From: Chlamydiota bacterium
GTDB lineage: Bacteria; Auribacterota; Tritonobacteria; UBA1439
DNA length: 64,000 nt
Direction of reading: 5' to 3'
NCBI GenBank assembly: GCA_037133055.1
Contig: JBAXOY010000002.1
Coordinates: 2,985 to 66,984 of the forward strand
The position numbers and the translations under genes are program-made. Within the stretch, counting starts at the first letter, position 1. Every line of letters starts with the position of its first letter. Of the stretch, positions 6,197-55,900 are shown piece by piece. Below the pieces are notes generated by a model, which was not told the DNA's origin, searched no databases, and saw only the letters and a program-made list of their open reading frames with translations.

Positions 6197-6239
6197 GTCA
6201 TTCTCCCTTCCGGAGATTCTACTCCCCTGCTTTTACTTC

Positions 6240-34346: not shown

Positions 34347-34754
34347 ATGGCGGATCACTGGCAGAGGATTGTTGAGAATCTTTTTGGCCGGATGGACGGA
34401 CCGCTCCATTTCCGGTTTATCGTGCAGCCGCTGATGGCGGTTTTCTTTGCGATCGTTGACGGGTGTAAAGACGCAAGGGCCGGGAAGCCCGCATATTTCT
34501 GGGCGCTGGTTTTCCATCCGGGGCATCGCAAAGGACTTCTGCGCGACGGTTGGAAGAGTGTGGGCAAGATATTTATCCTCGCGGTCGCGCTTGATATCGT
34601 CTATCAGTTAAAAGTTCAGCATTGGATCTATCCGGGAGAAATACTCATCGTGGCGTGTATTCTGGCGATCGTGCCGTATGTGGTGCTGCGCGGCCCGGTG
34701 AATCGCCTCGTGCGGCGGTTAACCATGAAAAACAATGAAGCGGATCATGCCTGA
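34347..34754 (+). CDS. hypothetical small membrane protein
   Basis: 135 aa with 3 predicted TM helices and no recognisable motif. It is co-directional and overlaps the next gene by 20 nt. Confidence 0.4.
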   Translation: MADHWQRIVENLFGRMDGPLHFRFIVQPLMAVFFAIVDGCKDARAGKPAYFWALVFHPGHRKGLLRDGWKSVGKIFILAVALDIVYQLKVQHWIYPGEILIVACILAIVPYVVLRGPVNRLVRRLTMKNNEADHA

Positions 34755-35964: not shown

Positions 35965-36048
35965 ATGAAACCGGGCCGAAACGAGTTGTGTCTCTGCGGG
36001 GCGGGAAGCAAGAGTGACCATTGATTCGCAATAAAAAGGAGGGAATGT

Positions 36049-37542
<1,494 letters not shown>

Positions 37543-39998: not shown

Positions 39999-40736
39999 AT
40001 GATGAGGTGGTTCGTATTCATTTCATTGTTGGGTAGCGTGGTATATATAGCCAATGCCCCAGCCGCCCCGCAAAAGGAACAGGTTGCTGCTCCCCCGGAA
40101 TCTACCCCCCCCGCCGTAATGGATAAAGCCCCACTCGCAGTACTTGACCTAGAAACACACGAGGGTATGGATGCGGGGGTTAGAATAGGCATCAGTGACC
40201 GTGTCCGTTATGCACTTTCCAAGACGGGGAAGTACCGCATTACAACCCGAAGTTCAATGGAATCTATGCTCAAAGAGCAGGACTTTCAACAATCGGGCAG
40301 ATGCGATGAACTGGCGTGCATAGTTCAAGTAGGGAAGATAGTCGGCGTGAAAAAGATGGTTGCAGGCAGGGTTGCAAAGATGGGCAGCCTTTATCAAATC
40401 AGTCTGCAACTTATTGATGTTGAGTCAGCCGTGGTTGAAAATGAAGTCATTGACAGTTGCAAGTGCAATGAAGGGGGGCTACTGCGGCTGGCCGAGGAAG
40501 AAGCGTGCCTTCTGGCCGGGGTGCCCAAGGCGCCCGCATCTCACGATTTGCGGGCGGGATCGGCGTCTAGGAAGGTGCCGGTGGGACAATACTGGTCCAA
40601 CACGATCGGGCCGACGTTCCACCGCGACGACTGCGCGCGGCTGAACAGGACCAAACCAAGCGCCTTGGTCATCTACAAAACCAGAGAAGATGCACTCGCC
40701 GCAGGCAAGAAGCCCTGCCGGGACTGCCAGCCGTGA
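39999..40736 (+). CDS. secreted protein with a CsgG-like N-terminal domain fused to a C-terminal Ada-like zinc-ribbon (YHxxxC...PCxxC)
   Basis: It has a signal peptide. LAVLDLETHEGMDAGVRIGISDRVRYALSKTGKYRITTR...QDFQQSGRCDE...VGKIVGVKKMVAGRV matches the CsgG pattern. The tail is FHRDDCARLNRTKPSALVIYKTREDALAAGKKPCRDCQP. Confidence 0.45.
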   Translation: MMRWFVFISLLGSVVYIANAPAAPQKEQVAAPPESTPPAVMDKAPLAVLDLETHEGMDAGVRIGISDRVRYALSKTGKYRITTRSSMESMLKEQDFQQSGRCDELACIVQVGKIVGVKKMVAGRVAKMGSLYQISLQLIDVESAVVENEVIDSCKCNEGGLLRLAEEEACLLAGVPKAPASHDLRAGSASRKVPVGQYWSNTIGPTFHRDDCARLNRTKPSALVIYKTREDALAAGKKPCRDCQP

Positions 40737-40799
40737 GACCATAGTGGAAGTAGTTATGCCCAAGGAACAAATTGAAGAGGCGCAGCGGATAGCACGGAA

Positions 40800-41711
40800 G
40801 TGGAAGCCGAAGAGGCACATATGAACACGATCCAAGGGGCATCCATACCATTTCCACATGCTAAAGATCGAAGGCATATTGTGGAAGTCCTTCTGTGTGT
40901 TTGCGTTTATGCACACGGTGCTCAGATATGCCATGGAATCGAGAAACTAGATATTAATACCGTTACGTATGATGAATTAGTCAGTGTAGTTAAGATCAAA
41001 CCCGAGAGGGCACGCCTGATCATAGGTTATAGAGACACGCATGGCCCTTATGCCTCGATAGAAGATTTGCAGCGCGTTGTATCACCAAATTATGTCGATG
41101 CGATAGATGCAGAATTGGTTGTGAGCGACAATCTTAGATGCTGGAGTTGCGGCAAAATCTTTTCTGAATCCATGCGGCATAAGACCGGGGTGTGTCCTTA
41201 TTGTAGGAAGGAATGGCCAGCAGCGCCGTCCGATATTGAACCACGAGAGATATCCATCCCGGAAAATGAACTCGGAATAAAAATTGGGGACCCCATTACA
41301 AAGGCAATCGACTTGATGGGAGAGCCGAAAAGGAAAGGCCTATCACCAATGGGGGCGTTGGAAGGAGAACGGAAAGAATTTTTTGGGCTGCAATCTTACC
41401 CTTATCCTTCAAAAGGTCTGACTTTTCACATAGTGAGGGATCGGATATGGAAAATAGAAGCAAAAGAACGATATGGGGGAATGTTGATGGGTATACATAT
41501 AGGATCGACAAAAGCAGATGTAATACAGAAACATGGCAAAGATTATCACGGAGAAGTCATGATGATTTACGATAAGAGGCCGACATGTCAGATGCAATTC
41601 AATGTGGACAAGGTATCGCAAAAGGTAACGCAAATTCGCATTTGGGATAAAAGCATAAGCGATAGATATTCAAAAAAAGCACGAAGGGTGTATAAACGGG
41701 AGTATCGGTAG
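40800..41711 (+). CDS. hypothetical protein with a ComEA-like helix-hairpin-helix segment and a CxxC...CxxC zinc ribbon, in a low-GC patch
   Basis: The HhH-like segment is DINTVTYDELVSVVKIKPERARLIIGYRDTHGPYASIEDL. The zinc ribbon is CWSCGK...CPYCRK. Codon usage is visibly AT-richer than in the neighbours. Confidence 0.45.
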   Translation: MEAEEAHMNTIQGASIPFPHAKDRRHIVEVLLCVCVYAHGAQICHGIEKLDINTVTYDELVSVVKIKPERARLIIGYRDTHGPYASIEDLQRVVSPNYVDAIDAELVVSDNLRCWSCGKIFSESMRHKTGVCPYCRKEWPAAPSDIEPREISIPENELGIKIGDPITKAIDLMGEPKRKGLSPMGALEGERKEFFGLQSYPYPSKGLTFHIVRDRIWKIEAKERYGGMLMGIHIGSTKADVIQKHGKDYHGEVMMIYDKRPTCQMQFNVDKVSQKVTQIRIWDKSISDRYSKKARRVYKREYR

Positions 41712-41853
41712 ATTGTGGAGTACGGACCAGGCGTAATAACGTCTATTCAGCAGATACAGTCCCTTCACCACACAAAAGAGGGTCGCAAACTGCGTGACCG
41801 GATGCGACTCTTGACTCAGGGCACATGCACTGTTCGACCCCGTTTCCAGTATC

Positions 41854-42921
41854 GTGTATAATGGCGCCATGTACATCCGGCGTATCCTCGGTTCCGTTCT
41901 GTGTTCCGCGATTGCCGCCCTCTCTCCGGCATATGCCTCTCCGGGCGACACGCATTTCATTGACCGGGATGCACTGTCGGTCTACTTCTACACGAGCACG
42001 CTCTACGCCTACGACGGATCGTACCCCGCCCTGGCGGCGCAGATGCGGGACGCCGAAAACATCGGGGCTGTTTTTCTCAGCGTCAGCATGCTCCACCTTG
42101 CGGAAACCGATTACGCCCGCATAGTCAGGGATTTCATCGAAGCCATGCATGGCGAAAATATTTATGTCCACGCGATGTATCTCCAGGACGCGACAATCCT
42201 CGACAACATCGCTCTCGCGCGTACACGGACGCAGGAGATCATCGCCTTTCACAACGCCTCCCCCGCGCAGTCGAAATTCGACGGCCTCACCCTCGATATC
42301 GAGCCCGAGAGCACCGACGAATGGGATACCGAATCCAACAGGTTCGGGCTTGTCCGGGAGCTCCTCTCCGTCATGGAGGCAATCCATGAAGAGCTGACGG
42401 ATTCGGCACTCGATCTCCCGCTCTCCTCCGCGCTGTACGCACACTACATGAAAAACGGTGCCCTTCGCTCGTGGCTGACCGTGAACGGCGAATCCGTCGG
42501 GTATCCGTCCGATTTCCTCCGCTTCATGGATTTCCTGATCCTGATGTCCTATGACGACGATCCTGCGGACATCGTGGACTACCTTCAAGACGAGCTGGCG
42601 TATGCAGGGGAGGACGACAGCATCCTGGCAGGGATAAAAACAAAGAATTCCGGCGACGATGACACCACCTCCTGGCAGGAGGGGTGGGAGGCCCTCTGTT
42701 CCGCCGTCGGCGAGGTCCGGTGCAGTTTGGACTCCACGAGCGGCCCGCTCCTGGGATTCGCTGTGTTTGAATACGAGTCGTACCGGGCCATGAAGGGGCT
42801 CGCGCCGGTCGATCTGAGGATCAATTTTCAAGCGCACGTTGCGACAAGGCCCGCGGGGTACCTGGAGGATCTGGCGCTGCCGTACGGCGTGATGGGCGGG
42901 TACCGCTTCGGCTGGCGTTGA
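41854..42921 (+). CDS. secreted TIM-barrel-like putative glycoside hydrolase with the C-terminal INFQ...GWR motif
   Basis: It has a signal peptide, a DGLTLDIEPE-type catalytic-looking block, and the tail INFQAHVATRPAGYLEDLALPYGVMGGYRFGWR followed by a stop. Confidence 0.45.
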   Translation: MYNGAMYIRRILGSVLCSAIAALSPAYASPGDTHFIDRDALSVYFYTSTLYAYDGSYPALAAQMRDAENIGAVFLSVSMLHLAETDYARIVRDFIEAMHGENIYVHAMYLQDATILDNIALARTRTQEIIAFHNASPAQSKFDGLTLDIEPESTDEWDTESNRFGLVRELLSVMEAIHEELTDSALDLPLSSALYAHYMKNGALRSWLTVNGESVGYPSDFLRFMDFLILMSYDDDPADIVDYLQDELAYAGEDDSILAGIKTKNSGDDDTTSWQEGWEALCSAVGEVRCSLDSTSGPLLGFAVFEYESYRAMKGLAPVDLRINFQAHVATRPAGYLEDLALPYGVMGGYRFGWR

Positions 42922-43125: not shown

Positions 43126-45579
43126 TTGAGGATGAGAGTCGTGAAAGAAGGCAAAGGATTGTGGTTAACGGCCTCCGCATCTGTCATGAGTCTTCTGGTG
43201 AGCGGTTCGGGGGCCACCGCCGCGTCTGCAAAAGAAAAGACCATATCCGACTATGAGAACGCCTTTAAGGGCGTTATCAAGCTGGATGTGCGCGATTCGG
43301 TGGCGGACTGGGCGCCCTACATGCAAAAAAAAGCGCCCGAAGGGGCGCCGAACGCCCTGATCATCCTTTACGATGACACCGGTCTTGCCGCGTGGTCGTC
43401 CTACGGCGGCAGGATCAATATGCCGACGATGGACAAACTGGCCGCGAACGGTCTGACGTACACGCAATGGCACACGTGCGCGCTTTGCTCGCCGACCCGG
43501 TCAACGATCCTGACCGGGCGCAACCATCACCTCAACGGCATGGCCTCCATCACGGAGGGGTCCAACGGATTCCCCGGTGCGTGCGGCCGCATTCCGGAAG
43601 AATGCGCCACGATCGGAGAGATCCTTCAGGACAACGGCTGGAGCACCTTCTGGCTTGGCAAGGACCACAACGTGCCCGTGCAGGATATCGGTTCGGGCGG
43701 GAGCCGCAGGGAATGGCCGCTCCAGATGGGCTTCGACCGTTTTTACGGTTTCCTGGGCGGTGAAACCAGCCAATGGTATCCGGACCTTGTCGAGGACAAC
43801 CGGTTCGTCGAGCCGCCGTATGGCCCCGAGGATGGCTACCACCTCTCAAAAGACCTTGCAGACAAGGCGATCGCGATGATCCGCGACCAGAAGTCCAGCA
43901 ATCCGTCGAAACCATGGTTCATGTGGTTCTGTCCGGGAGCAAACCACGCGCCTCACCAGAGCCCGCAGGAATACATCGATAAGTACAAGGGCAAGTTCGA
44001 TGACGGCTATGAAGCGTATCGCACATGGGTGCTTGAGCGCATGATCGCCAAGGGTATCATGCCGAAGGGCACCCAACTCACGCCGCTTAATCCTCTGCCG
44101 GGGGAAGTGGCGAATACGGCGGACTTCGTGCGCCCCTGGGGCTCGCTCAACGCCGACGAAAAGAAATTGTTCTCGCGGATGGCGGAAGTCTTCGCGGGAT
44201 TCTCGGAGTACACGGATGCCCAGATTGGCCGTCTCATCGATTACCTGGAGAAGAGCAAACAGATCGAGAACACCATAATTTTCTATGCCGCCGATAACGG
44301 CACGTCCGGCGAGGGAACCCCCAACGGCTCGGTCAACGAGAACAAGTTCTTCAACGGTTACCCGGATGATCTCTCCGAGAACATGAAATATCTGAATGCC
44401 CTGGGAGGACCGGACACGTACGAGCACTTTCCGACCGGATGGGCCGCCGCGTTTTCGACGCCGTTCCAGATGTTCAAGCGGTACTCGCAATATGCGGGCG
44501 GCACCTGCGACCCCCTGGTCATCTCGTGGCCCAAGGGCATCAAGGCGCGCGGCGAGATACGGAACCAGTATCACCATTCCACGGACATAGTGCCGACGAT
44601 TCTGGACGTGTGCGGACTGGAGATGCCGAAGGTCTATCGGGGCGTCGAGCAGTTCCCTCTCTCCGGCGTCTCGATGCGCTACACCTTTGATGCGAAGCCC
44701 GACGATCCGACGACGAAGAAGCGTCAATATTACGCCATGCTCGGAACCCGCGGGATCTGGGAGGGCGGCTGGAAGGCCGCCGCCGTCCACGCCCCGCTGA
44801 CCAGCAAGGGGCATTTCGACAAGGACCAGTGGCAGCTCTACCACGTGGACACCGACCGCTCCGAGTCCAAGGACCTGGCCAACGCGCATCCCGGGAAGAT
44901 CGAGGCGCTCATCAAAGCCTGGTTCGAGGAGGCGGGAAAAAACCTGGTCCTTCCGCTCGATGACCGAACCACTTTGGAGATACTGAGTACTGAACGGCCC
45001 ACTCAAGAACGGCCGCGCGAAAGATATGTGTACTATCCCGATACTTCTCCGGTGCCGGAAGCTGTTGCCGTAAGCATAATCGGCAGGTCGTATAAGATAC
45101 TCGCCGATGTGGAGATCACCGATCCGGATTGCTCGGGGGTTATCTTCGCCCATGGTTCGCGTTTCGGCGGCCACACGCTCTTCATCAAGGACAAGAAACT
45201 GCACTATGTCTACAACTTCCTCGGCATCAAGCCGGAGCAGCAATTCGTCTCGCCCGAGCTTAAGCCCGGCAAATATACTCTCGGTATGGAGTTCAACCGG
45301 GAGGGCGCGGGCAAATATCATGAGTCTCTGGGCGCAACCAAACTCTATGTAAACGACAAGGTGGTCGCGGAAGGCCCCATGAGGACGCAGGCGGGCGCCT
45401 TCAGCCTGTGCGGCGACGGCCTCTGTGTCGGGTATGACAGCGCCGATGCGGTGAGCAAGGAATATGCGTCGCCGGGGAGGTTCAAGGGCGGGAAGATCAT
45501 GGGCGTCGGGGTCACCGTCGAAAAGGCGCAGTACCTCGATCTGGAGAAAGAAGCGCAGGCAAAATTCAGCAGGGACTAG
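43126..45579 (+). CDS. secreted Cys-type arylsulfatase with a large C-terminal extension
   Basis: The ribosome-binding site is AAAAGGAGG. It has a signal peptide. The sulfatase signature is CALCSPTRSTILTGR, with the N-terminal metal-binding motif LIILYDDTG. Confidence 0.85.
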   Translation: MRMRVVKEGKGLWLTASASVMSLLVSGSGATAASAKEKTISDYENAFKGVIKLDVRDSVADWAPYMQKKAPEGAPNALIILYDDTGLAAWSSYGGRINMPTMDKLAANGLTYTQWHTCALCSPTRSTILTGRNHHLNGMASITEGSNGFPGACGRIPEECATIGEILQDNGWSTFWLGKDHNVPVQDIGSGGSRREWPLQMGFDRFYGFLGGETSQWYPDLVEDNRFVEPPYGPEDGYHLSKDLADKAIAMIRDQKSSNPSKPWFMWFCPGANHAPHQSPQEYIDKYKGKFDDGYEAYRTWVLERMIAKGIMPKGTQLTPLNPLPGEVANTADFVRPWGSLNADEKKLFSRMAEVFAGFSEYTDAQIGRLIDYLEKSKQIENTIIFYAADNGTSGEGTPNGSVNENKFFNGYPDDLSENMKYLNALGGPDTYEHFPTGWAAAFSTPFQMFKRYSQYAGGTCDPLVISWPKGIKARGEIRNQYHHSTDIVPTILDVCGLEMPKVYRGVEQFPLSGVSMRYTFDAKPDDPTTKKRQYYAMLGTRGIWEGGWKAAAVHAPLTSKGHFDKDQWQLYHVDTDRSESKDLANAHPGKIEALIKAWFEEAGKNLVLPLDDRTTLEILSTERPTQERPRERYVYYPDTSPVPEAVAVSIIGRSYKILADVEITDPDCSGVIFAHGSRFGGHTLFIKDKKLHYVYNFLGIKPEQQFVSPELKPGKYTLGMEFNREGAGKYHESLGATKLYVNDKVVAEGPMRTQAGAFSLCGDGLCVGYDSADAVSKEYASPGRFKGGKIMGVGVTVEKAQYLDLEKEAQAKFSRD

Positions 45580-45639
45580 ATGCCCGGCATTCACGTTCCT
45601 GCCGAACCAACGGGCGTGATCTGTAATCTCCGGCATGGT

Positions 45640-46977
45640 TCATTTATTCGTCTCATGTAAGGGGTGATTCACCATCGCGCGTGCGGTGCTTCGGGCCTGC
45701 GTGCGGGCCTGGGCCAGGGTTGCTGCAACAGCGGCAATCCACTTGTCGGGAAAACGGGCAGGATCCGTCATCCATGGCCGAAGGCTCTCGACCGCGCCTT
45801 CGCTCCCCTCCAACTCGTCGGCGACGGCGCAGATGAGCAAGGCCCCGGTCTGGGGAAACCGCGCGCTCCACTCCGGCCCCACGGCATGATCGAACCCGGC
45901 GGCGAACGCCTGGAGTTGGTCATCGGCCAGATGTGTGCGCCGCGTCTCGCCTAGTTCGGCGGCGGCCTGCGACAGTTTTTTGTATTCGGACTTTTTCTCG
46001 GGGATGGCGGCGGCCAGTTCCTCTGCCAGGATCTCCAACTGGACCTGCAACAGGAAGGTCGGCATGCCGCGGCCCGCGAGGATACGGCCCAGCCACCGCA
46101 CCTGCTGGATGATCTGCGCCGGCTCGTAGTGGTAGAGCGTGGCCAGCCAGGCGGAGTCGCTCCGGGCAAAGAGCCGCCCCCTCTCGCCATAACGGTGCTC
46201 AAAGTAGGGAAACCGCTGCCAGCAGACATCGGCGGCCCGGAGGGAGGCCTGGACCTCGCGGGCATCGGCCGGCACCGGATGCCGCCCCGCCTCTGGATTG
46301 ATGGAGGTGGCAAGGAAGGTCTTGGACTCCGGTTTGAACGGGTACAGCGCCCGGAAGATCGCCTCGATCTGGGCCAAAAACTCGTTGGCCGCCTGTGTCA
46401 TCTGGTCGCGATCCTCGACGCTGAGGCGAAGCGCGTTCATGCGCTGCTGATACTGCGCCCACCGGACATACACTGCGGCCACATCAGTGTGCAGATAGGC
46501 CGACCCTTCATCGCCCGCGAGCAGGAAAGCCCGGGCATAGAGCGGCTGCAACACAACGGCGCCGAGCGTGGATCCCTCCAAAACATACACACAGCCCAGA
46601 ATGGTCAGCGGCTGCTCCATAGACCTGAAACGGAGCCACTCGGCGGTTTTCAGCGCCGCCTCGGCCGCCTCCTTCAGGTCAGCCACGGCCCGCGGTTCGA
46701 AATACCGCAGGTCTTGCTGAAGCCGGGGGAGTTTGCGCATGTCCTGGTTCCAGACGGAGGCAATCTGCTCGTCAGGGCAGCGTTCGAGCGCCTGCTCCAT
46801 CTCCCCATGTATAACGGACAAGGCCCGCAGTTGTCCCACATAGGATTCCAGCGGCAATCGGCACGCGACGAGGGCATGGAAGAAAGGCGCGGTTTGCAGT
46901 CGGGCATGAACCGGAAAAGTCGCCGCCCTGAGTTCTTCCATCAGGGTTAGCTGCTGTCCGTAGAGTCCTGTCTTCAT
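45640..46977 (-). CDS. heme-oxygenase-like N-terminal domain fused to an about 220-aa C-terminal domain of unknown function
   Basis: The N-terminal 220 aa follow the bacterial HO/BphO pattern (LMEELRAATFPVHARLQTAPFF...YVGQLRALSVIHGEMEQALE...LPRLQQDLRYF...YVLEGSTLG). Its start overlaps the stop of the upstream histidine kinase by 4 nt. Confidence 0.6.
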   Translation of the reverse strand: MKTGLYGQQLTLMEELRAATFPVHARLQTAPFFHALVACRLPLESYVGQLRALSVIHGEMEQALERCPDEQIASVWNQDMRKLPRLQQDLRYFEPRAVADLKEAAEAALKTAEWLRFRSMEQPLTILGCVYVLEGSTLGAVVLQPLYARAFLLAGDEGSAYLHTDVAAVYVRWAQYQQRMNALRLSVEDRDQMTQAANEFLAQIEAIFRALYPFKPESKTFLATSINPEAGRHPVPADAREVQASLRAADVCWQRFPYFEHRYGERGRLFARSDSAWLATLYHYEPAQIIQQVRWLGRILAGRGMPTFLLQVQLEILAEELAAAIPEKKSEYKKLSQAAAELGETRRTHLADDQLQAFAAGFDHAVGPEWSARFPQTGALLICAVADELEGSEGAVESLRPWMTDPARFPDKWIAAVAATLAQARTQARSTARAMVNHPLHETNK

Positions 46978-48122
46978 GGATGTGTTGACTCCTCAGTCAG
47001 AGGTAGTTCCTGGACCGGCAAAGCGAAAAGAAAGGTCGAGCCCGCGCCGGGGATGCTCTCCACCCAAATGCGCCCGCCGTGCGCCTCGACGACCAGCCAC
47101 GCGATGGAGAGGCCGAGTCCCACGCTGCGTTCCCCGGCGGTCTTGCGGGTCCCGGCGCGCACGAAAGGCGCAAAGAGCCGCTCTTGGTCCTCGAACGCGA
47201 TGCCGGGCCCTTCGTCACGCACGGAGAAGACCAGTTCCGAGGCTTCCCGGCGAGCCGCCAGCCAGACGCGCTGGCCTGCGTTGGAGTGTTCAACGGCATT
47301 ACTCAACAGGTTGATTAAAACCTGCCGGACCTTGGCAACGTCCACGACCAGAGGGCGCGCATCGCCCTCCGCCTCCGCGAGCAATTCGACCTTCTTCCTG
47401 GCGGCGACCAGGCGGACCAGCGGCAGAACGCTCGACAGGATCTCCGCCATATCGGTTCGCGCCCGCTCCAGCCGCAGGTGTCCAGATTCGATTACGGACA
47501 CATCGAGAAAATTATCGATCAGCCGCTTCATGCCGGCGGCGGCGGCCAGAATGGCGCGAAGAAATCCCCGCTGCTCGTCGCCGAGGCAGCCGCCGGCCGC
47601 GTCAAGAACCAACTGGCTGTAGATCATGATGACCCCGACGGGATTGCGGAGGTCGTGCGCCGCCATGCCGATAAAGTGGTTCTTGAGCTCGTTCAGTTCG
47701 CGCAGCTCCGCGTTGGCCTGATGGAGCTGCCGGGTAAGGTTGTTCAACTCGCGGTTCAGCCCCAGCGCCTCGTCGCGCAGTTTCCGCTGTTCCTGGAAGT
47801 CGAGACTCCCGAGAGCGAGCGTCCCCTCGGGCAATGGGAAGAATCGGAAGCACAGGGTCTCGGGTATTCCGGAAACGGTGCTCAGCGTGAGCCGATGAAC
47901 CGCGCTGCCCTGCCGGATGAGCGAAGGGAGATTGAGCGAGCGGGTGAAATCCACGATCTGTTCAGCAAACGGGCGCCCGAAGGCCTCGCCGCGCAGCACC
48001 TGGCGCGCCAGGGCGTTGGCGCCCGCCACGCAATGGTCGGCGTCAAGGTAGAGCGCCAGGACGGGCGCGGTCTCCACCACATAGGTTCGCATAGCCTCGG
48101 CGATGCGGGGGTCGTCAAACAT
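46974..48122 (-). CDS. cytoplasmic sensor histidine kinase with an N-terminal PAS-like domain
   Basis: The H-box is NHFIGMAAHDLRNP, the N-box is NLLSNAVEHS, and the G-boxes are DEGPGIAFEDQERLFAPF and GLGLSIAWLVVEAHGGRIWVES. There are no TM helices. Confidence 0.8.
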   Translation of the reverse strand: MFDDPRIAEAMRTYVVETAPVLALYLDADHCVAGANALARQVLRGEAFGRPFAEQIVDFTRSLNLPSLIRQGSAVHRLTLSTVSGIPETLCFRFFPLPEGTLALGSLDFQEQRKLRDEALGLNRELNNLTRQLHQANAELRELNELKNHFIGMAAHDLRNPVGVIMIYSQLVLDAAGGCLGDEQRGFLRAILAAAAGMKRLIDNFLDVSVIESGHLRLERARTDMAEILSSVLPLVRLVAARKKVELLAEAEGDARPLVVDVAKVRQVLINLLSNAVEHSNAGQRVWLAARREASELVFSVRDEGPGIAFEDQERLFAPFVRAGTRKTAGERSVGLGLSIAWLVVEAHGGRIWVESIPGAGSTFLFALPVQELPLTEESTHP

Positions 48123-48786
48123 GGTTTCCGCCGCCCGTTATCCACGCCTCGAGTTCGCTCAGGGACGTCAGGCAACGCACCCCGGGCAGGCCTGCGACCC
48201 GCTCCCGTCCGCCCCGGCGGAACGCCTGCCCGCCGACGAGAATCGGCACGTCCGGGAAGGCCGCCCGGATTTCAGCGGCGGCGCTGATGAGCGTATCCAG
48301 ACCAAAGGCTACGGTCACCGAAAGCGCAACCACGTCCGGCCGCTTTTCCGCAATGAGCGCCTTCACGTCGCTCACGGTCGTGTTCGCGCCCAGGAAGTAA
48401 CCGCGCCAGCCGTGCAACTCGAAGAGATCGGCTACCATTTTTCCGCCGATCTGGTGATGCTCGTTGGCCACGCACGCGACGATCGCCGACTTTCCCACGT
48501 GCGGCTGCGCGAAGAGCCGGGGATAGGCAAGGTTTAGCAGGCTCTCGGTGATCGCAGTGGCCAAGTGCTCCGTGGCCACGGAAATCCGTCCCCGTTCCCA
48601 CAGATCGCCTATTTCGTAGAGCGAGCGCTGCACCAGCTCCTCATAGAGCGTGCGAAGCTCGACATTGGCCTCCAGCCATTGCTCGAAGCTCACACGGCAC
48701 TGGTGTCGGTCGTTGGCCAGCAGGCCGCCCAGATAACGCCGATAGTCATCCTCGGAGGAGAAAAGTTGGTCCGGCGACTGATTCAT
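48115..48786 (-). CDS. stand-alone cobalamin(B12)-binding domain protein (CarH/AerR-like sensor module without a DNA-binding domain)
   Basis: The most plausible start is the ATG at 48786 (MNQSPDQLF...). The B12-binding motif is ANEHHQIGGKMVADLFELHGW (ExHxxG...G) in a Rossmann-like region. It overlaps the histidine kinase start by 8 nt. Confidence 0.65.
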   Translation of the reverse strand: MNQSPDQLFSSEDDYRRYLGGLLANDRHQCRVSFEQWLEANVELRTLYEELVQRSLYEIGDLWERGRISVATEHLATAITESLLNLAYPRLFAQPHVGKSAIVACVANEHHQIGGKMVADLFELHGWRGYFLGANTTVSDVKALIAEKRPDVVALSVTVAFGLDTLISAAAEIRAAFPDVPILVGGQAFRRGGRERVAGLPGVRCLTSLSELEAWITGGGNHV

Positions 48787-49127
48787 TCGTGAGCCTTCGT
48801 CGAAGTCGCCGGGGCCGTCTCGCCCCCCGCGGGCCGGTGGCGGGGCGGTTCGCCAATCTTCCCGCGCAGATCGCTCACTTCGCGCTTCAGTTCGATCATG
48901 CGGAGGGTGCGATCGACGGCGACCCGGTTGAAGCGGCTCAGCTCGTCGTTGCGGGCACGGGGTTCTCCGGCCTGCTCCCGCAGCGCATCCTCCGCCTTCT
49001 TGCGCGAGGTGGTGTCGCTCGTCACGGCGCGGTACACGGGCGCGCCGTCGGCGTCCTGCGCCGCGATTGCCCCCACCCGCGCCCAGAATGACAGGGCGTC
49101 TTTTCGCGCCATCCCCATCTCCCACAC
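48783..49127 (-). CDS. possible remnant or N-terminal piece of a sensory protein (PAS-linker / coiled-coil-like segment)
   Basis: ...TSRKKAEDALREQ...ELSRFNRVAVDRTLRMIELKREVSDLR resembles inter-domain linkers of PAS sensor proteins. Its stop abuts the B12-binding protein start in another frame. Confidence 0.25.
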   Translation of the reverse strand: MWEMGMARKDALSFWARVGAIAAQDADGAPVYRAVTSDTTSRKKAEDALREQAGEPRARNDELSRFNRVAVDRTLRMIELKREVSDLRGKIGEPPRHRPAGGETAPATSTKAHE

Positions 49128-49420
49128 CCGCGGCGCGCCGTGTCGAGCTCCGCCACGAACATCGCCGCGATCTTTTCGATCGCCCCATTTCTCCTGCGCC
49201 TATTGTACTTCCTCATTCCCTCCCGTCCAGTGCAAAACACCCCGCAGGATGTACGACCCCGCATCAGCCCCGACTCGACCCGGGGATGATCGAGGCGCGG
49301 TTCAGCCTCGGGATCGTTCTCTTAATCTCGGCGACCGGGAAGGGGCGGCAGCCGGGTTCGATCGGATGCCCGCGGAGAGGCCCGATTTCGCGCCGGCTGC
49401 GGCGTGACGCGCACGAGTGA

Positions 49421-49844
49421 ATGCCTTCCGTTGAAATGATCCGCGACAAATATCTTTTCCATGCGGCCTCCCTGCGGCATCCTTTTCATGCAGCGGGGCG
49501 CCGATTTGGTGTACAATACGTGCCCGGCGCCCGTCCGGCACGCACACGTCCGGAGTGCGATCATCATGAACTCGTCCCCGAAGAAGTCCGCGCCCGATTC
49601 AACAAGCCCGCCGCGAAGGCGGAGATCTTTATCGAGGACACGGGCAGCGGGATCCCGGAGAAGGATCCGGGGAAAATCTTCAAGCCATTTTTCAAGAGTA
49701 AAAAGGGGGGAGACAGGCCTCGGCGCTTCCATCGTCCGGCGCATTGTGCTGGGGCGCCACGGGACCATACGCTGCGAAAGCGCACGGAATAAGGGGACCT
49801 GTTTCACCATCGCGTTGCCGCGTGCGAAATGGGGGAGGGCATGA
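49421..49844 (+). pseudogene. frameshifted 3' fragment of a histidine kinase (HATPase_c G1/G2 boxes split across two frames)
   Basis: One frame reads FIEDTGSGIPEKDPGKIFKPFFKSKKGG. The adjacent frame reads TGLGASIVRRIVLGRHGTIRCESARNKGTCFTIALP. No HisKA or sensor region is intact upstream. Confidence 0.45.
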
Positions 49845-51199
49845 AGAAGATCCTTATCGTGGACGACGAGGAATCGATACGGACGTCCCTGTCGATCCTT
49901 CTGAAGAAGGACGGCTATTCCGTGAGCGAGGCGGCTGACGCGAACGAGGCGCTGGGCATGCTTGACGCATCCTGCTACGACCTGGTCATCACGGATTTGA
50001 ACATGCCGGAGATGGGGGGGATCGATCTCCTGAGGCACGTGAAGAAGGAGCACCCGGACGCCGAGGTCATCATCCTCACCGCCTACGGCAGCATCCAGTC
50101 GGCGGTCGAGGCGATCAAGATCGGAGGGTGCGACTACCTGACGAAGCCGATCGAGTCCAAGGACATCCTCATACGGGTCGGGAACGCGCTCGAGCGCAGC
50201 TTCCTCAGGCAGGAGGTGCGCCGCCTGAAAGACGCGGTGGGAGACCGGTTCTCGTCCAAGCACATCATCGGCACGAGCCGGGCGATCGCCGCGCTGCTCG
50301 ACACCGTAGACCAGGTCGCGAAGACGGATTCCACGGCGCTCCTGATCGGGGAGAGCGGCACGGGCAAGGAGCTCGTGGCGCGTGCCCTGCACGGGGGGAG
50401 CAGCAGGAGGGAGCGGGCATTCATCCCCATCAACTGCGGGGCGCTGCCCGAAACGCTGCTCGAGAGCGAGCTGTTCGGCCACGCGAAGGGCGCGTTCACG
50501 GGTGCGATGCACTCGAAGAAAGGCCTGTTCGAAGAGGCGGACGGGGGTACGATATTCCTGGACGAGATCTCGGCGACGGCCCCCATGACACAGGTCAGGC
50601 TCCTCCGCGTGCTCCAGGAGCAGGAGGTCCGCCGGCTCGGGAGCAACGAAACGGTGAAGATCAATGTCCGCGTGATCGCCGCGACGAACCAGGACTTCGG
50701 CGCGCTGGTGCGGGCCGGGAAGATCCGCGAGGATCTCTACCACCGATTGAACGTCATCACCATCATGCTCCCCTCCCTGCGGGATCGGAGGGAGGACATC
50801 CCGCTTCTGATCGAGCATTTCGTCAAGGCGTACACAGGCGGCGACAGGGCGAGGGCCAGGAGTATGTCCGACGATGCGTTCGAAGCCCTGAGCCGGTACG
50901 ACTGGCCCGGCAACGTGCGGGAGCTGAAAAATGCCGTCGAGCGGGCCATGGTCATGTCGAAGACGTCGGTGATCGAGCTCGCCGATCTCCCCCAGGAGAT
51001 CCGATCCGTCGCCGGGAAGGCCGTTAGGGCGCGGGGCGGCGCGGGAGGGCTCAAGGACGTGGAACGGGATTATGTCCTGGAACGGCTCACACTCCACGAC
51101 TGGAACTACTCGAAGACCGCGCGGGACCTCCGCATCGCGAGGAACACCCTTCTCAAGAAGGTGAGAGAGTACAGGCTGAGCCGCCCCCCCGGGCGGTGA
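49841..51199 (+). CDS. NtrC-family sigma-54-dependent response regulator (REC + AAA+ + HTH)
   Basis: It starts at an ATG preceded by GGGGGAGGG. The REC domain shows KILIVDDE...DLVITDLNMP. The sigma-54 AAA+ domain shows GESGTGKELVARALH and GAFTGA. A C-terminal Fis-type HTH is present. Confidence 0.85.
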   Translation: MKKILIVDDEESIRTSLSILLKKDGYSVSEAADANEALGMLDASCYDLVITDLNMPEMGGIDLLRHVKKEHPDAEVIILTAYGSIQSAVEAIKIGGCDYLTKPIESKDILIRVGNALERSFLRQEVRRLKDAVGDRFSSKHIIGTSRAIAALLDTVDQVAKTDSTALLIGESGTGKELVARALHGGSSRRERAFIPINCGALPETLLESELFGHAKGAFTGAMHSKKGLFEEADGGTIFLDEISATAPMTQVRLLRVLQEQEVRRLGSNETVKINVRVIAATNQDFGALVRAGKIREDLYHRLNVITIMLPSLRDRREDIPLLIEHFVKAYTGGDRARARSMSDDAFEALSRYDWPGNVRELKNAVERAMVMSKTSVIELADLPQEIRSVAGKAVRARGGAGGLKDVERDYVLERLTLHDWNYSKTARDLRIARNTLLKKVREYRLSRPPGR

Positions 51200-51897
51200 T
51201 CCGGGAGAGCGGCTCGTCGCTCCGGCCTTTCAAAAACTGCACACCGCGTAGTATCTCCACAGCTCCCGCCCCCCTCGTTCCCATCCCGGCTCCCTCCTCG
51301 ACACGTTCGCGCTGATTCGCATCCCCTTGTCGTGGGGTAGGCTGAATGGCATCCGCAGAAAAAAGCCGGACGATCCGATGCGTGACGTGGAAGTTGCAGT
51401 CTCTTTTGAGAGCGGGGACGCGTGTCTCCGCATCTCATGCAATTTTGCGCAGGCCCGGAAGCGCCGATCCCGGAGGGGTATGTCATGATCGTATCCGACG
51501 GGAAGACGGTTCTACACGAGCGGCCGGCCGATGCAGCTCATTACGAAAACATTATGCGGTGGCGCGGACCGCACTGCGGGCGAAAGGCTCCAGTGGCGAA
51601 CCTTGGGGCATGCCTCGCAGCGCGGTGTCCGCCCCGTCAATCCGTCCGTGCAGGTTGCTCAATAATTGAACACCTGTCATTTTCTGAATAGCCATCCGCG
51701 CTCAGAGAAACGTCCGTGGAACTGTATCCAGGAGTTCAGCAATCTAACCTACTGGTATTACGCATACTAGGAATAGCGACGGATTTTTCTCAATTGCCCA
51801 TCGACGGCATGAATTATGCTTCGCTTGTACGCGGGGGACTGGGTACCCGGCGTAAGGTTTTGTTTTGAAATCTCGAACGGTCGGACAAGGGGGGAGC

Positions 51898-52959
51898 ATG
51901 AAACGGCAGATTTCCATTGCGGCATCTGCATTCATCGGTCTGTGCGCGGCGGTATGGGCCGCTCCGCAAGCGGCAAAGGATTCGCTGCCACCGTCGGCGG
52001 CGAAGACGCATCTTTCCGCGCTTGAAGGCGCGTGCCGGAGAGGGGATGAACGGGGGATAGTGCAGAGCATCGGTGATCTCAGAGCGGAGTGGGGTAACGT
52101 CCCCGATTACGGGGCGATCGGGGAGGCGGTGCTCTCGCGCGACGCGGATCCGAAATACCGCTGGGTCATGCTCGACTCGCTTGTGCAGTACAAGCGCATC
52201 GTGAAGGACAGCCGCGACGCCCGCGCTCTCCTCACGCTTCTCGACGTCGTGTCGTGGGCGGAGAACGATACGTCGTTCGTGCGCGCCAAGGCGCTTACCG
52301 TGGAAGCGGGGATGATCGCCCTATTCGAGGAGAAGGGGCTCATCCGGGAAGCCCGGCGGCGCGAGTTCGGGAAAAAACTCGCCGCGCTCATCGAGAAGGA
52401 GAAGGACGGCGACCTGCTTGCCGCGGCCTGCATCGCCGCGGGGAGTGCGGATGCCGGGGAGGCCGTTCCCGCGCTGCGGAAGCATGTGCGGAACGAGAAT
52501 GCCCCGTCCCTTGTGCGGCGCACGGCGGCGGGCTCGCTCGGGAAGTTGAAAGACAGGGAGAGCATCCCCCTCATCGCGGAGGTCATGAAAAACACGACCG
52601 ACCGCGCGCTTTACGGCTCAAGTGCCTTTGCTCTGGGGACCATGGGGGGCGAGGAGGTCGTGGAGCCGCTCGTGGCGCACGCGGGGCGCTTCGACACGCA
52701 CTCCTGCGGAAACGCCCTCCGGAGAAATTCGGCGACGGTCGCGCGCATGTTGACGGACACCCAATCCCCCCGCCTGGAGAACGCGATCAGGGCGGCGGGC
52801 CTTGCGGAAATGAAGGAAACCCTCCCGCAGCTCGAGGCGCTGGAGAAGGACGGGCGTCCGGAGGTGCGGCGCGCGGCGAAGGAGGCCCGGGAACGAATCA
52901 GCCGGAAACCGGGGGGGGCGACCCCCGGCGCGGATGCCCGCAGGGAGGTGAAGCCATGA
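51898..52959 (+). CDS. secreted HEAT/PBS-lyase-like repeat protein
   Basis: It has a signal peptide after [21 protein letters not shown]. It contains repeated helical units with conserved R..AA..LG. Its stop (TGA) overlaps the ATG of the giant downstream gene (ATGA). Confidence 0.6.
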
Positions 52960-55900
52960 AGAGACCGGCAATCCTCCTGATTCTCGCGGCAATGGGAACA
53001 GCGGCTCCCCCTGTGTCCGGTCAAATCATCGGGAGCCAGGAGCGCGGAGACGCCGTCTACCACAACCTCACCGGGCTCTACAGCATCGCGGGCTACGACC
53101 ATGCGGCGATCTATTACGGGTACACGAGTGGCGACCGCACCGACATGGGCAACCACCGCGTCATCGAGGTTGGGGGCCTTTTCGACGTGGTGAGCGAGAA
53201 CTCATTCGGCGATTTCACCACCGGGGAGGACCTGTACTACTACGGCGCCCACACCAATCCATCGATCACGGCCGCCCAGCGCGCAGCGATCATCGCCACC
53301 GCCGAGGATTTTCGCGACAACTCGAACCTCACGTACACGGTCTTCGGGCAGATTGACTGGAAAGGGCTCGACTGGGACGGCACGATCGGCGACCTCGAGA
53401 ACATCCGGTGCGACGGTTTGGTGGAATGCTGCTACGAGATGAACGGGGTAAACGTGTGGGGCAAGGAGGGGACGCACTTCTCGATCGTGAACTACCCCGA
53501 CGAGCACAACGACATGCCCGACTTTTGGAATCACGACACCTCGGACGGCATGATGGAGGACCCGCGCTGGGAGGTCTCGCCGAAGGCACAGCGGGGCGGG
53601 CTGGGTGAGGAGTACACGCAGTTCCGCATTTCGATCGCCTATAATCCTGTCGTCCACCCCTCGCTGTCGGGGGATACCGGATGGGAGGGCTGGTACCGGG
53701 GCGACGTGGAGGTCTCCCTCACCGCGACGGACGACTCGGGCATTCACCAGGAAAACGGGATCGACTACATCCAGTACGGACCTTCCGCGTCGGGGCCGTG
53801 GACGACGTACACGGAGCCTTTTACCGTGACATCCTCCACACGCATCTACGGATACTCCGTGGACAAGGCCGGGAATGGCCCCTCGCACGGGAGCGAGGTG
53901 GTATACGTCAAGATTGACAGGGACGCCCCGCCCGTCACGAGCCCCGCGCCGTCCCCCGCGGGGCCGACGTGCAGCACGATGCCGACGGTTTCGGGCTACA
54001 CGGTGAACGACAACGGCCCGAGCGGGATACACCACTACGAGTACAAGATCGACGGAGACGAGACCGTCCGCACGGCGACGTGGACGAGCTTCCAGACGCC
54101 GACGCTGGGGGAGGGGACCCACACCGTGTACGTGCGCGCGGTGGACAAGGCAGGCAGCGAGGGCCCGTGGGGGAGCTGCCAGGTCGTGGTGGACTTCAAC
54201 ACAATCCCCTGTCCCACCCCCACGCCCGGAAACCCCGAGAATGATCCGGGAGAGCTGTATAACGCCCAGGTGGCCGGCAGTGTGCCTTTCACCTCGACGG
54301 GGTCGTGGACGAGCGGCTGCGTGGACGGGAACTATCTCTATCTTGCCGCAGGGGGCCTGTCGATCTTCGATCTCGGCGACCCCGCCAACCCAAGCCTTGT
54401 CGGCTCGTATCCGGGCGACTGGGACGGGGAGTTCGGCATCATCGTTCGCGACTGGAAGGCGTACACGATCAGCTACCATGGCCTGAAGATCTTCGACGTC
54501 TCCAACCCCGCCCAGCCGGTTCTCCTGGGGAGCAGCGCGACGGGGGGTTACTTCCCGGGCTACCCGTACGAGAAGAAGATGTGTGTCTCCGGCGACTACG
54601 CCTACGCCTATGCCACGCTCTGGAATATCTCCAACCCCCAGAGCCCCTCCTACGTGTATGACCTGAGGGGCGCTCCGGCGTATGTGAGCGGGGGCTACGA
54701 GTGGTGGTTCTACAACACCATGCTCGGCGTCAAGAACGTCTTCCTGGCTCCGCCCCCCGCCGACACTGACATCATCCGCGTCAGGCCGTACCCGATTCGG
54801 TCTGAGGACGCCTCCTACGCCTACGACATGCATGTGCAGCCGCCCTATGTGTATCTCGTGGACAACCGCTTCGGGCTTACGATCTATGACATGAACTTCA
54901 ACCAGCAGGGGACCTATCTCCAGTTCACGCCGTGGAGCAGCCCGACCTACAGCAACAGCCATCTCTGTGTCTCTGGGAACCGGGCATACATCGGTTCGGC
55001 TGCCAGACCCCCCGGAACCGGGGAGGACGTCACGTTCCTCCAGGTCATCGATGTTTCAAACCCGGCAGCCACCCGGCTCGCCGGTCAGATCGGGATCCAG
55101 GGGATCACAGGCGGGTTGGGCAATTTGCAGGATATCGTCGCGAGGGACGGCTACGTCTACATGCTTTTCAACGGCCGGATACTGGTAATCCGCGACGAAG
55201 CCGCGGCCCCGGCCTCCGTGGTCGGATTCGATTTCCCGGTGGCGGACCGCGACCAGGACCCGGTCGAGGGGGTGGTTCGGGACACGCGTTACTTCGCCCG
55301 GTTCCTGCCCGGCGCCTACAGTTACGGCGGAAACTCCTACCTCGGGTTCGGCATTCTTCCCGACGGCGACTTCCTCGCGCCGAATTACAGCAGCACGATC
55401 GAGCACCCGGGCGAGGACTGGAACGGCTCGGGTGGCGGCTCTACTGACCAGGGACAGCCGGCGCGCGCGATCGGCGACGGGGTGGTGAGGGTGAGCGCGG
55501 ACTTCGGCGGCGCGTGGGGAAACGTCATCCTCGTGGAGCACAGCGCGCCCGGGGGTTTTTCGTTCAAGGTCGCCGACCGGAACGGCGAGACCGGGAACAC
55601 GGTCTCGAAGGTCTGGTCTCTCTACGGGCACCTGAATAATCGCGCGGTGAGCGCGGGGGACACGGTCACGCGCAGCCAGGAGCTGGGCGGGATCGGGAAC
55701 GCCGACGGCTATTACGGCAACGGGTACCACCTCCACCTCGAGGTGAGGTACGCCACCTGGGTGGCGAAGGCGATGAGTGAGTGGACGCAGAGCGACTGGA
55801 ACGCGTGGGCGGTGAGCTGGGGCGGGAAGGCGGGGAGCGCGACGACGGTCGAGCAGTACTGGTGCGACCCGACAAACTTCATTCTGGCCAACCGGTCGGT

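Follow-up and report, generated by a model that had tools for sequence, protein, structure and literature searches.

The window analysed here is a 64-kb stretch of DNA from a metagenome-assembled genome. From the ORF list, three intact genes were located on its minus strand, at 48115-48786 (223 aa), 46974-48122 (382 aa) and 45640-46977 (445 aa), which confirmed the coordinates and the overlaps of 8 and 4 nt given in a preliminary description of this DNA. The junction between the B12 gene and the kinase gene reads ATGTTTGA (8-nt overlap) and that between the kinase gene and the heme oxygenase (HO) fusion gene reads ATGA (4-nt overlap), suggesting that the three core genes are translationally coupled. 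A 114-aa ORF at 48783-49127(-) overlaps the B12-gene start with its own end, also at an ATGA. The features of the locus are as follows.

48783..49127 (-): 114-aa ORF, 3' remnant of a multi-sensor gene; homologous stretch 48801-49031 (tblastn)
48115..48786 (-): stand-alone CarH/photocobilin-type cobalamin-binding protein, 223 aa (Pfam and PDB sequence matches)
~48532-48732 (-): B12-binding_2, four-helix bundle (Pfam E = 2e-11)
48598-48600 (-): W63 (aligned to SasPcob W61, TtCarH W131)
48565-48570 (-): E73-H74 (aligned to SasPcob E71-H72, TtCarH E141-H142)
~48217-48489 (-): B12-binding, Rossmann domain (Pfam E = 2.5e-16)
48454-48456 (-): H111, predicted lower axial ligand (aligned to SasPcob H108, TtCarH H177)
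46974..48122 (-): soluble sensor histidine kinase, 382 aa (Pfam and motifs)
~47778-48122 (-): PAS-like N-terminal domain of the kinase (profile match to kinase sensor domains)
~47481-47684 (-): HisKA (Pfam E = 6e-13)
47655-47657 (-): phospho-acceptor H156 of the kinase (motif AAHDLRNP)
~47010-47342 (-): HATPase_c with N, G1 and G2 boxes (Pfam E = 4e-26)
46345..46947 (-): heme oxygenase domain of the 445-aa fusion, residues ~11-211 (PF01126, alignment, fold)
46906-46908 (-): H24, proximal His of the HO domain (aligned to HO-2)
46561-46581 (-): distal-helix motif L133-E-G135-S-T-L-G139 (aligned to HO-2)
45928..46275 (-): predicted photoglobin (bilin-binding, non-heme globin), residues ~235-350, five helices
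46156-46158 (-): D274, predicted biliverdin contact (maps to SasPcob D270)
46093-46095 (-): W295, predicted biliverdin contact (maps to SasPcob W296)
45667..45927 (-): extra C-terminal helical subdomain, residues ~351-437, five helices (secondary structure and conservation)

The start of the 223-aa B12 protein agreed with the public gene call P0271 at 100% identity and coverage. Scanning the window for promoters and terminators gave counts no higher than shuffle expectation, and no Rfam match to a cobalamin riboswitch or other RNA element was found in it.

The B12 protein had been described as a CarH/AerR-like module without a DNA-binding domain, and this held: Pfam found none, and the ExHxxG motif is present as E109-x-H111-x-x-G114, with the lower-ligand His retained on alignment as H111. 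Its top PDB sequence match was the photocobilin SasPcob (8J2W, E = 1.1e-22) and TtCarH followed at 9e-10, so by sequence match the protein stands closer to the B12 module of photocobilins than to that of CarH. Residue numbering for SasPcob and TtCarH was taken from PMC10979010 and PMC11796333. Both motifs typical of CarH-like domains that respond to light, W-x9/10-EH and E/DxH, were present (W63, E73-H74 and E109-x-H111), and all four CarH key residues (W131, E141, H142, H177) were kept. Of the four published motifs of light-responsive CBDs (GxxW, EH, GxxH, GxxxP; SignatureFinder 2024), the first two were found as GDLW and EH; the GxxH position reads NEHH, keeping the His with Gly replaced by Asn, and the GxxxP position reads GANTT, with Pro replaced by Thr. 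Light-responsive CBDs are told apart by AdoCbl-specific adenosyl-capping residues, and the equivalents Trp63 and Glu73-His74 are kept here (PMC11796333). The best 120 matches of a homologue search were all stand-alone proteins of 205-322 aa, with no photocobilin sequences among them.

The second gene encodes a histidine kinase with H156 in AAHDLRNP, followed by NLLSNAVEHS, DEGPGI and GLGLSI boxes, and with a coiled-coil linker between the N-terminal domain and HisKA. Its longest hydrophobic stretch is 9 aa, indicating no membrane segment. The preliminary description of a soluble PAS histidine kinase was therefore right as to solubility and the HisKA/HATPase_c transmitter. The PAS assignment found no match in Pfam; a profile of the N-terminal family was compared with solved kinase sensor domains (7YRT, E = 2.6e-4; 9P6I, 8e-4; ThkA 3A0V, 0.059), and on the modest match to 7YRT we describe the domain as PAS-like. 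This domain is kept beside the cassette in relatives (E from 1e-8 to 1e-59).

The N-terminal part of the 445-aa fusion is a bacterial heme oxygenase domain, as had been proposed. Heme_oxygenase PF01126 covered residues 11-201 (E = 2.3e-19; 70.5 bits against a curated cut-off of 23), PDB sequence matches were to HO-2, HO-1 and HemO, and Foldseek gave target TM-scores of 0.72-0.82 against HO-1, HO-2 and HmuO; heme oxygenases were the only matches of the full-length fusion model. Alignment with HO-2 located the proximal His (H24) and the two distal-helix Gly (G135 and G139); in HO-2 an Asp comes after the first of the two Gly, and Ser takes its place here. Across 41 homologues H24 and E134 were invariant, and G135 and G139 were at least 90% conserved.

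The remaining domain of roughly 220 aa had been left unplaced. Residues ~212-445 gave no Pfam match even at E ≤ 10, and neither Pfam nor NCBIfam placed this C-terminal half. Searches of PDB sequences with the single sequence and with two family profiles returned nothing significant (8J2X, E = 0.59), the first profile search missing 8J2W, 8J2X and 8J2Y altogether, and Foldseek with the C-domain alone found no match at E ≤ 0.001. Placement was achieved through fold comparison and a targeted profile-profile comparison only. The domain is a predicted non-heme globin whose fold is closest to that of phycobiliproteins, and its top fold match was SasPcob, also the top sequence match of the B12 protein. 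With hhalign, the C-domain matched a mini-profile of three alphaproteobacterial photoglobin-B12 fusions and the SasPcob fragment at 88% probability (E = 3e-6, 72 columns; reversed control 0.1%), a relatedness that rests on this one small profile. On these comparisons the unplaced domain is assigned as a photoglobin.

The SasPcob residues that contact biliverdin, D270 and W296 (PMC10979010), have their counterparts in D274 and W295 of the fusion, both invariant in the family. D274 was invariant in 38 diverse sequences and corresponds to the conserved ligand-pocket Asp of the third helix (D49 in the photoglobin numbering of Schneider 2021); its mapping to D270 is a two-step alignment in which one link is weak (second domain, i-Evalue 4). 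No Cys is found at the phycobiliprotein attachment position. The C-terminal subdomain beyond the globin had no Pfam match and no significant PDB sequence match; D387 is invariant in it, and W402, W413 and F409 are conserved. A tandem globin duplication within the 231-aa C-domain was considered and rejected (hhalign probability of 0.1% between the halves).

The 114-aa ORF upstream, in which no Pfam domain was found, had been read as a possible decayed N-terminal extension. It is instead the tail of a separate gene: two relatives, L028 and L022, carry a full-length multi-sensor gene upstream of the B12 gene, and tblastn of their proteins against the window matched only the last 64-79 residues (E about 1e-16). 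The L028 protein is dCache_1-PAS-GAF-PAS without a transmitter domain. A sensor role for the ORF is improbable at this locus. Another neighbor, the HEAT/PBS-lyase-repeat protein at 51865-52959, was considered as a bilin lyase partner and set aside, as it is kept in 0/46 loci and the globin lacks an attachment Cys.

We then examined related loci with at least 3.5 kb of flank (n = 23), counting co-occurring genes on one strand. The B12 gene was present in 20/23 and the kinase gene in 18/23, in three gene orders (B12>HK>HO, HO>B12>HK and B12>HO>HK), and the bins bearing this synteny were assigned to Verrucomicrobia, Betaproteobacteria, Alphaproteobacteria, Spirochaetota, Chloroflexota and others. 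The synteny is thus conserved across several phyla; the same genes on one strand in 20/23 loci and three orders is an arrangement far beyond chance. In about 30 relatives a conserved receiver gene, with a variable output domain, lies directly downstream of the cassette. No orthologous receiver gene was found in the whole 64-kb window, where the receiver of a divergent sigma-54 regulator shares only 26% identity with the conserved partner receiver. In this genome, then, the three-gene core is intact, and the receiver and upstream multi-sensor genes are missing from the locus. The cassette family forms about 650 clusters at 50% identity. Among 270 C-domain proteins a natural HO-photoglobin-B12 fusion was seen only in P0061, a singleton on a 2.7-kb contig that could be a sequencing artefact.

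The circuit had not been recognised as a described system, and here the literature corrects the earlier view, through the photoglobins (2021; PMC8717448), BBAG-2 globins (2023; PMC10151467) and photocobilins (2024; PMC10979010). In 2021 Schneider et al. reported that photoglobins are coupled to B12 modules in two-component operons, and they listed the Heme_oxygenase-photoglobin architecture (PMC8717448). That survey, made without locus experiments, includes WP_045221611.1 as an example, lists sequences annotated 'biliverdin-producing heme oxygenase' and proposed heme sensing or heme degradation as a possible role of the oxygenases in these operons (PMC8717448). [quoted passage not shown] Absent from the survey are the conserved four-gene layout of the cassette, a dedicated PAS-like kinase, the extra C-terminal subdomain and HO as an in-cis supplier of biliverdin (PMC8717448). 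Public labels on the cassette genes are 'biliverdin-producing heme oxygenase' and 'cobalamin-dependent protein' only.

Photocobilins bind B12 and biliverdin and respond across the visible spectrum, their photochemistry being supported by crystal structures; a stand-alone photocobilin domain appears to regulate its partner enzyme via protein-protein interaction (Zhang et al., 2024; PMC10979010). SasPcob and AbDPcob (8J2W/8J2X/8J2Y) resemble the window proteins in two modules: the B12 module is CarH-like and contains the W-x9-EH and E-x-H motifs, and the globin is phycobiliprotein-like, with five helices, an Asp and a Trp at the biliverdin contacts, and no Cys for attachment. In photocobilins, however, B12 module and globin form one polypeptide, whereas here they are encoded by separate genes with the kinase gene between them, and the globin is fused to HO and followed by an extra helical subdomain of ~90 aa. 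Photocobilins are free-standing or have a fused diguanylate cyclase as output; the output here would be a separate PAS-like histidine kinase. BBAG-2 globins likewise lack the CXRD Cys motif; they are biliverdin-specific by experiment, and an association of HO, globin and B12 was reported with them (PMC10151467). They are stand-alone and often lie beside a pre-PcyA bilin reductase in Myxococcota, whereas the window globin is fused to HO in a cassette with a kinase, and no bilin reductase was seen among the genes examined. From CarH (TtCarH 5C8A), which shares the two-domain B12 module and AdoCbl-contact residues, the window protein differs in having no MerR DNA-binding domain, so that output would pass through partner proteins, and in carrying Glu in place of His132, the upper ligand of TtCarH in the light state.

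In BphO-BphP operons a heme oxygenase is co-transcribed with a photoreceptor that uses its biliverdin, and a histidine kinase is the output. BphP has a GAF/PHY/PAS-GAF photosensory core, whereas Pfam found neither GAF nor PHY in the window operon, as the preliminary description had stated; the bilin here would sit non-covalently in a globin, paired with B12.

Taken together, these data make it fairly probable that the cassette encodes a light sensor of split photocobilin type whose signal passes to a two-component kinase; the earlier proposal of one two-tetrapyrrole circuit is supported by domains, residues and synteny. The HO domain would cleave heme to biliverdin, and the fused photoglobin would capture the product non-covalently via Asp274 and Trp295. 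The 223-aa protein would bind adenosylcobalamin in the manner of CarH, base-off and with His111 as the lower ligand (His-on), and Trp63 and Glu73-His74 would cap the adenosyl group. These chromophore steps rest on domain identity and residue conservation; the two that come next, docking and control of the kinase by light, we infer. On the model of single-chain photocobilins, the photoglobin may bind in trans to the B12 module, bringing B12 (green) and biliverdin (red/far-red) into joint action, and light-driven Co-C cleavage would alter the assembly state. The kinase, which is co-translated, would sense this change through its PAS-like domain and alter autophosphorylation at His156; in relatives, the kinase would phosphorylate the receiver protein encoded immediately downstream. 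A more elaborate version, which we offer tentatively and with some doubt, has the HO-photoglobin as a self-charging bilin sensor, forming in trans a split photocobilin that gates the PAS-like kinase, with the ~90-aa subdomain as docking module and the heme and O2 needs of HO integrating light with oxygen and heme status. In that case B12/biliverdin photoreception would have its first two-component (phosphorelay) output.

The genes could instead be two separate modules that share an operon, the B12 protein and kinase acting as an AdoCbl-only green-light sensor and the HO-globin as a heme-degrading enzyme whose globin accepts or sequesters biliverdin (for release, detoxification or iron recovery) with no signalling. 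In three full-flank loci the stretch of 6 kb around the HO-photoglobin gene holds no B12 gene, CarH-type domains that stand alone can sense light in the absence of a bilin (PMC11796333), and a possible role in heme sensing or degradation has been suggested for the operon oxygenases (PMC8717448). However, linkage of B12 and photoglobin genes outlasts three gene orders and several phyla, in Alphaproteobacteria a photoglobin-type domain stays with B12 and kinase where the HO part is missing, the B12 protein most resembles a photocobilin module, and the solved relatives show optical coupling between bilin and B12 (PMC10979010), so that we regard separate modules as unlikely. It is quite improbable, in our view, that the cassette senses tetrapyrrole, oxygen or redox state in the dark, the B12 domain reporting cobalamin and the HO turnover and biliverdin occupancy of the globin reporting heme and O2. 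HO activity does need O2, reductant and heme, the two peripheral light-signature positions of the B12 protein deviate, and some B12-binding regulators respond to the form of cobalamin as well as to light, AerR being a weak PDB relative (7TE2, E = 0.01; L037 protein). Against this, the AdoCbl-specific capping residues Trp63 and Glu73-His74 are conserved (PMC11796333) and many related bins bear freshwater or lake-type sample names.

A last reading, to which we give a small chance, falling between those of the previous two, concerns this genome alone: whatever the family does elsewhere, the cassette here may be a relic or an assembly artefact that no longer signals. It is flanked by truncated genes, the multi-sensor gene being reduced to its last 64-79 codons and facing a 5'-truncated, frameshifted HATPase_c remnant (49421-49844); the HO-fusion stop lies 60 bp from that of a convergent sulfatase gene, the window holds no orthologous receiver gene, and its source is a metagenome-assembled genome. 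Yet the three core genes are full length with all key residues intact, are 70-85% identical to relatives and keep their overlaps. A sigma-70-like promoter match lies upstream, though the scan count is no higher than shuffle expectation, and another part of the genome could encode the receiver.

By its sequence, the cassette, real and widespread, is probably a two-gene ('split') form of a described B12 and biliverdin light sensor, with an architecture already catalogued; for the window itself the value lies in correct annotation rather than discovery. If the split-photocobilin reading is true, photocobilin halves can work as separate proteins, and B12/biliverdin photoreception is wired to histidine-kinase phosphorelays in nature. 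A photoreceptor could then carry its own chromophore-making enzyme, which would be attractive for optogenetic tools without added biliverdin, and heterotrophic freshwater bacteria (e.g., Verrucomicrobia and Rhodoferax relatives) would possess a broad-spectrum light input that is hidden by current annotation.

The three operon genes lie on the minus strand at exactly the coordinates assigned to them in the preliminary description, and the junction sequences ATGTTTGA and ATGA give the 8-nt and 4-nt overlaps between them that were described there. The public gene call for the B12-binding protein shares its 223-aa start (100% identity, 100% length, labelled 'MAG: cobalamin-dependent protein [Chlamydiota bacterium]'), and the heme oxygenase (HO) fusion exactly matches a public entry of that MAG labelled 'biliverdin-producing heme oxygenase'. 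The stop codon of the HO fusion gene is 60 bp from that of a convergent sulfatase gene (window 45579-45640).

Features of the operon
48115-48786, minus strand: B12-binding protein gene, 223 aa (ORF call)
46974-48122, minus strand: histidine kinase gene, 382 aa (ORF call)
45640-46977, minus strand: HO fusion gene, 445 aa (ORF call)
45667-45927, minus strand: five-helix subdomain, residues ~351-437 of the HO fusion (model and conservation)

The Pfam family Heme_oxygenase covers only residues 11-201 of the HO fusion. The catalytic residues are present: alignment with human HO-2 equates His24 with the proximal His, and Gly135 and Gly139 with the two distal-helix glycines. Among 41 homologues His24 and Glu134 were invariant, with Gly135 and Gly139 at least 90% conserved. 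The full-length model was confident (pLDDT 87) and superposed on HO-1, HO-2 and HmuO with a target TM-score of 0.72-0.82.

The remainder of the fusion (the C-domain, residues ~212-445) had been described as a domain of about 220 aa that could not be placed, and it has no Pfam or NCBIfam match even at E ≤ 10. Modeled separately, residues 215-445 formed an all-helical structure of ten helices (pLDDT 89.4, pTM 0.84). Two C-domain family profiles gave no significant match when compared with PDB sequences; the second returned 8J2X, an entry of the photocobilin SasPcob, at E = 0.59 in an alignment that matched the invariant Trp. Alphaproteobacterial relatives served as a bridge, as their B12 proteins are extended at the N-terminus by a stretch that aligns with the globin segment of SasPcob. 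A small profile built from these B12-fused photoglobin segments matched the first half of the C-domain profile in hhalign (probability 88%, E = 3e-6, 72 columns); the reversed control gave a probability of 0.1%, and another comparison gave the same register. The chained alignments, in which the SEQRES-to-paper numbering offset for SasPcob was taken from His108 and confirmed by Trp296, equate Asp274 with SasPcob Asp270 and Trp295 with SasPcob Trp296. In the SasPcob crystal structure, Asp270 and Trp296 are the residues that hold biliverdin by its A-C pyrrole rings and its D ring (PMC10979010). When 38 sequences with 36-54% identity to the query were aligned, only nine positions were invariant, Asp274 and Trp295 among them. 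From the profile match, the chained alignment and this invariance, residues ~235-350 are identified as a five-helix photoglobin, a non-heme globin predicted to bind bilin. At the position of the phycobiliprotein attachment Cys the C-domain family has Thr, Ala, Ser or Gly, which agrees with the non-covalent bilin binding seen in photocobilins.

For the second part of the C-domain, residues ~351-437, no relative was detected. It has conserved residues of its own (Asp387 invariant, Trp402 and Trp413 conserved) and could be a docking surface. That this subdomain duplicates the globin was considered and rejected, as hhalign of the two halves gave a probability of 0.1%. A metagenomic protein of 632 aa (P0121) is a doubled form of the fusion, with two C-domains in tandem after the heme oxygenase.

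[quoted passage not shown] By sequence its nearest solved relative is SasPcob (8J2W/8J2X, E = 1.1e-22) and not CarH; the next PDB matches, in descending order, were 8JBS, then AbPcob, a second photocobilin (8J2Y, 1e-12), and only after these TtCarH (9e-10). Trp63, Glu73-His74 and His111 align with Trp61, Glu71-His72 and His108 of SasPcob and with Trp131, Glu141-His142 and His177 of TtCarH, the lower-ligand His thus being kept. In those two proteins the aligned residues provide the adenosyl-group cap and the lower axial ligand (PMC10979010, PMC11796333).

The kinase has Pfam HisKA and HATPase_c domains, complete H, N, G1 and G2 boxes and no membrane segment, and its earlier designation as a soluble histidine kinase stands. 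The PAS part of that designation is more modestly supported: the N-terminal ~115 residues have no Pfam match, and their family profile matched solved histidine-kinase sensor domains (7YRT, E = 2.6e-4; 9P6I, 8e-4; the ThkA PAS domain 3A0V, 0.059). On these profile matches, 'PAS-like' is a reasonable label.

An exhaustive search recovered 647 C-domain clusters at 50% identity, 519 of them at E ≤ 1e-10. Most members are HO fusions of ~430 aa; roughly one in five has only the C-domain, in a shorter chain, and some of these may be fragments. A genome scan gave 46 loci, whose bins were assigned to Verrucomicrobia, Betaproteobacteria (many of them Rhodoferax), Alphaproteobacteria, Spirochaetota, Chloroflexota, Omnitrophica, Gemmatimonadetes and further groups. 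Synteny was counted over the 23 loci flanked by at least 3.5 kb on each side: a B12 gene lay within 4.5 kb on the same strand in 20/23 and a kinase in 18/23, and the N-terminal sensor domain of the kinase was recognizably orthologous across loci (E 1e-8 to 1e-59). A fourth conserved gene, directly downstream of the cassette at about 30 loci, encodes a receiver-domain protein. The receiver domain is orthologous and the outputs vary (Cys-rich tail, HisKA kinase, HWE-like kinase, PAS-GGDEF, multi-PAS); the C-terminal region of the multi-PAS protein resembles an HD-GYP domain by eye. At two of the 46 loci (L028:1-3510 and L022:1013-3382) the gene directly upstream of the B12 gene encodes a large membrane multi-sensor protein of dCache-PAS-GAF-PAS architecture. 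This protein lacks a transmitter or output domain and has a coiled-coil linker at its end; it may provide the same kinase with another input.

Features of related loci
L001:6685-7326: receiver-domain gene, example in a relative
L036, L037, L038 and L041, about 3300-6650 in each: alphaproteobacterial variant cassette, with a B12 protein bearing an N-terminal photoglobin-like extension, a kinase and a stand-alone C-domain gene without HO

In the three intact copies of this variant (L037, L038, L041) the Asp270 equivalent in the extension is Val (motif RQV/RQI), and the extension is disrupted in L036. The stand-alone alphaproteobacterial C-domain keeps the Asp, and bilin binding may be delegated to this separate protein.

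Upstream of the operon, the window holds two gene remnants that face each other.

Remnants upstream of the operon
48783-49127, minus strand: 114-aa ORF, carrying the last 64-79 residues of the dCache-PAS-GAF-PAS multi-sensor protein
49421-49844, plus strand: 5'-truncated and frameshifted HATPase_c remnant, two overlapping short ORFs (profile positions 27-69 and 58-110)

The 114-aa ORF, previously taken for a possible decayed N-terminal extension, is instead the 3' remnant of the separate multi-sensor gene that lies ahead of the B12 gene at L028 and L022; no other part of that gene was found in the window. The HATPase_c remnant is directly upstream of a sigma-54 NtrC-type regulator (49829-51199). 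The arrangement suggests a deletion, or a mis-join in the metagenome-assembled genome, at about 49130-49420, which would explain both truncations. An orthologous receiver gene is absent from the window by tblastn, where only the receiver of the sigma-54 regulator matched (26% identity).

Elsewhere in the window, a HEAT-repeat protein (PBS-lyase HEAT-like repeats, PF03130, E = 2e-9; 51865-52959, plus strand) is encoded 2.7 kb from the operon, a closeness that is probably coincidental, since the gene is not conserved beside the cassette in any relative. Two giant ORFs are present on the plus strand, at 23077-32283 (3068 aa) and 52254-62210 (3318 aa); matches of the latter to M23 peptidase, DUF1565/NosD beta-helix, Chlamydia PMP repeat, LVIVD and Lcl_C suggest a large surface or secreted protein. 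A radical-SAM/SPASM protein adjoins a sulfatase (34735-37542, plus strand), resembling an anaerobic sulfatase-maturase pair, and a second sulfatase (817 aa) lies at 43126-45579 on the plus strand. GC content falls to 47% at 1-2000 and 50% at 40001-42000, against about 62% elsewhere in the window.

The best-supported reading, and the one towards which we lean, is a split photocobilin-type sensor that feeds the kinase. Domain identity and residue conservation point to a heme oxygenase that would make biliverdin, a fused photoglobin that would capture this product, and a separate CarH-like protein that would bind AdoCbl. SasPcob gains absorbance at ~700 nm when it binds biliverdin. From synteny, translational coupling and the behavior of solved relatives, the two proteins may pair in trans in the same way as the corresponding domains of 8J2W in cis, with light altering the assembly and the PAS-like kinase reading that change. 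In those relatives, protein-protein contacts appear to let a stand-alone photocobilin domain modulate a partner enzyme (PMC10979010).

That independent modules merely share one operon is unlikely. The cassette occurs in three gene orders (B12>HK>HO-globin, as in the window, HO-globin>B12>HK and B12>HO-globin>HK), which points to the association itself being under selection, and not to one operon having simply been inherited. Coupling is not universal, as three HO-photoglobin genes with full 6-kb flanks (L005, L023, L034) have no B12-binding gene nearby; a 662-aa protein fusing HO, C-domain and B12 module (P0061) counts for little, being a singleton on a short contig. We regard as also unlikely a locally defunct or mis-assembled copy, which would be compatible with the other readings: beside the two remnants, the three core genes are full length, keep all key residues and share 70-85% identity with relatives. 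Least likely is a sensor of tetrapyrrole or oxygen acting in the dark. Two peripheral positions of the published four-motif light-responsive signature differ in the B12 protein (GxxH is NEHH, GxxxP is GANTT), and all residues proven important in CarH are present.

The proposal of a two-tetrapyrrole sensor was sound, and the feature is real and conserved; the system, which the preliminary description did not recognize, has been described. Schneider et al. (2021) defined photoglobins, predicted that they bind bilin, and showed that within two-component operons they are almost always coupled to B12-binding domains; they listed an architecture that contains Heme_oxygenase, as well as sequences that carry the annotation 'biliverdin-producing heme oxygenase' (PMC8717448). 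Rockwell et al. (2023) reported an association of HO, globin and B12, and biliverdin binding by globins of this kind (PMC10151467). Zhang et al. (2024) determined photocobilin structures and showed B12/biliverdin photochemistry (PMC10979010). In the literature searched, no published experiments were found on the HO-fused, split, kinase-coupled form. The HO fusion has the features of a photoglobin and the B12 protein those of a CarH-like module; the system is not a photocobilin in the strict sense, since the B12 module and the globin sit in separate chains. The value of the finding would lie in the correct annotation and predicted architecture of this system, with some appeal for photobiology and optogenetics.
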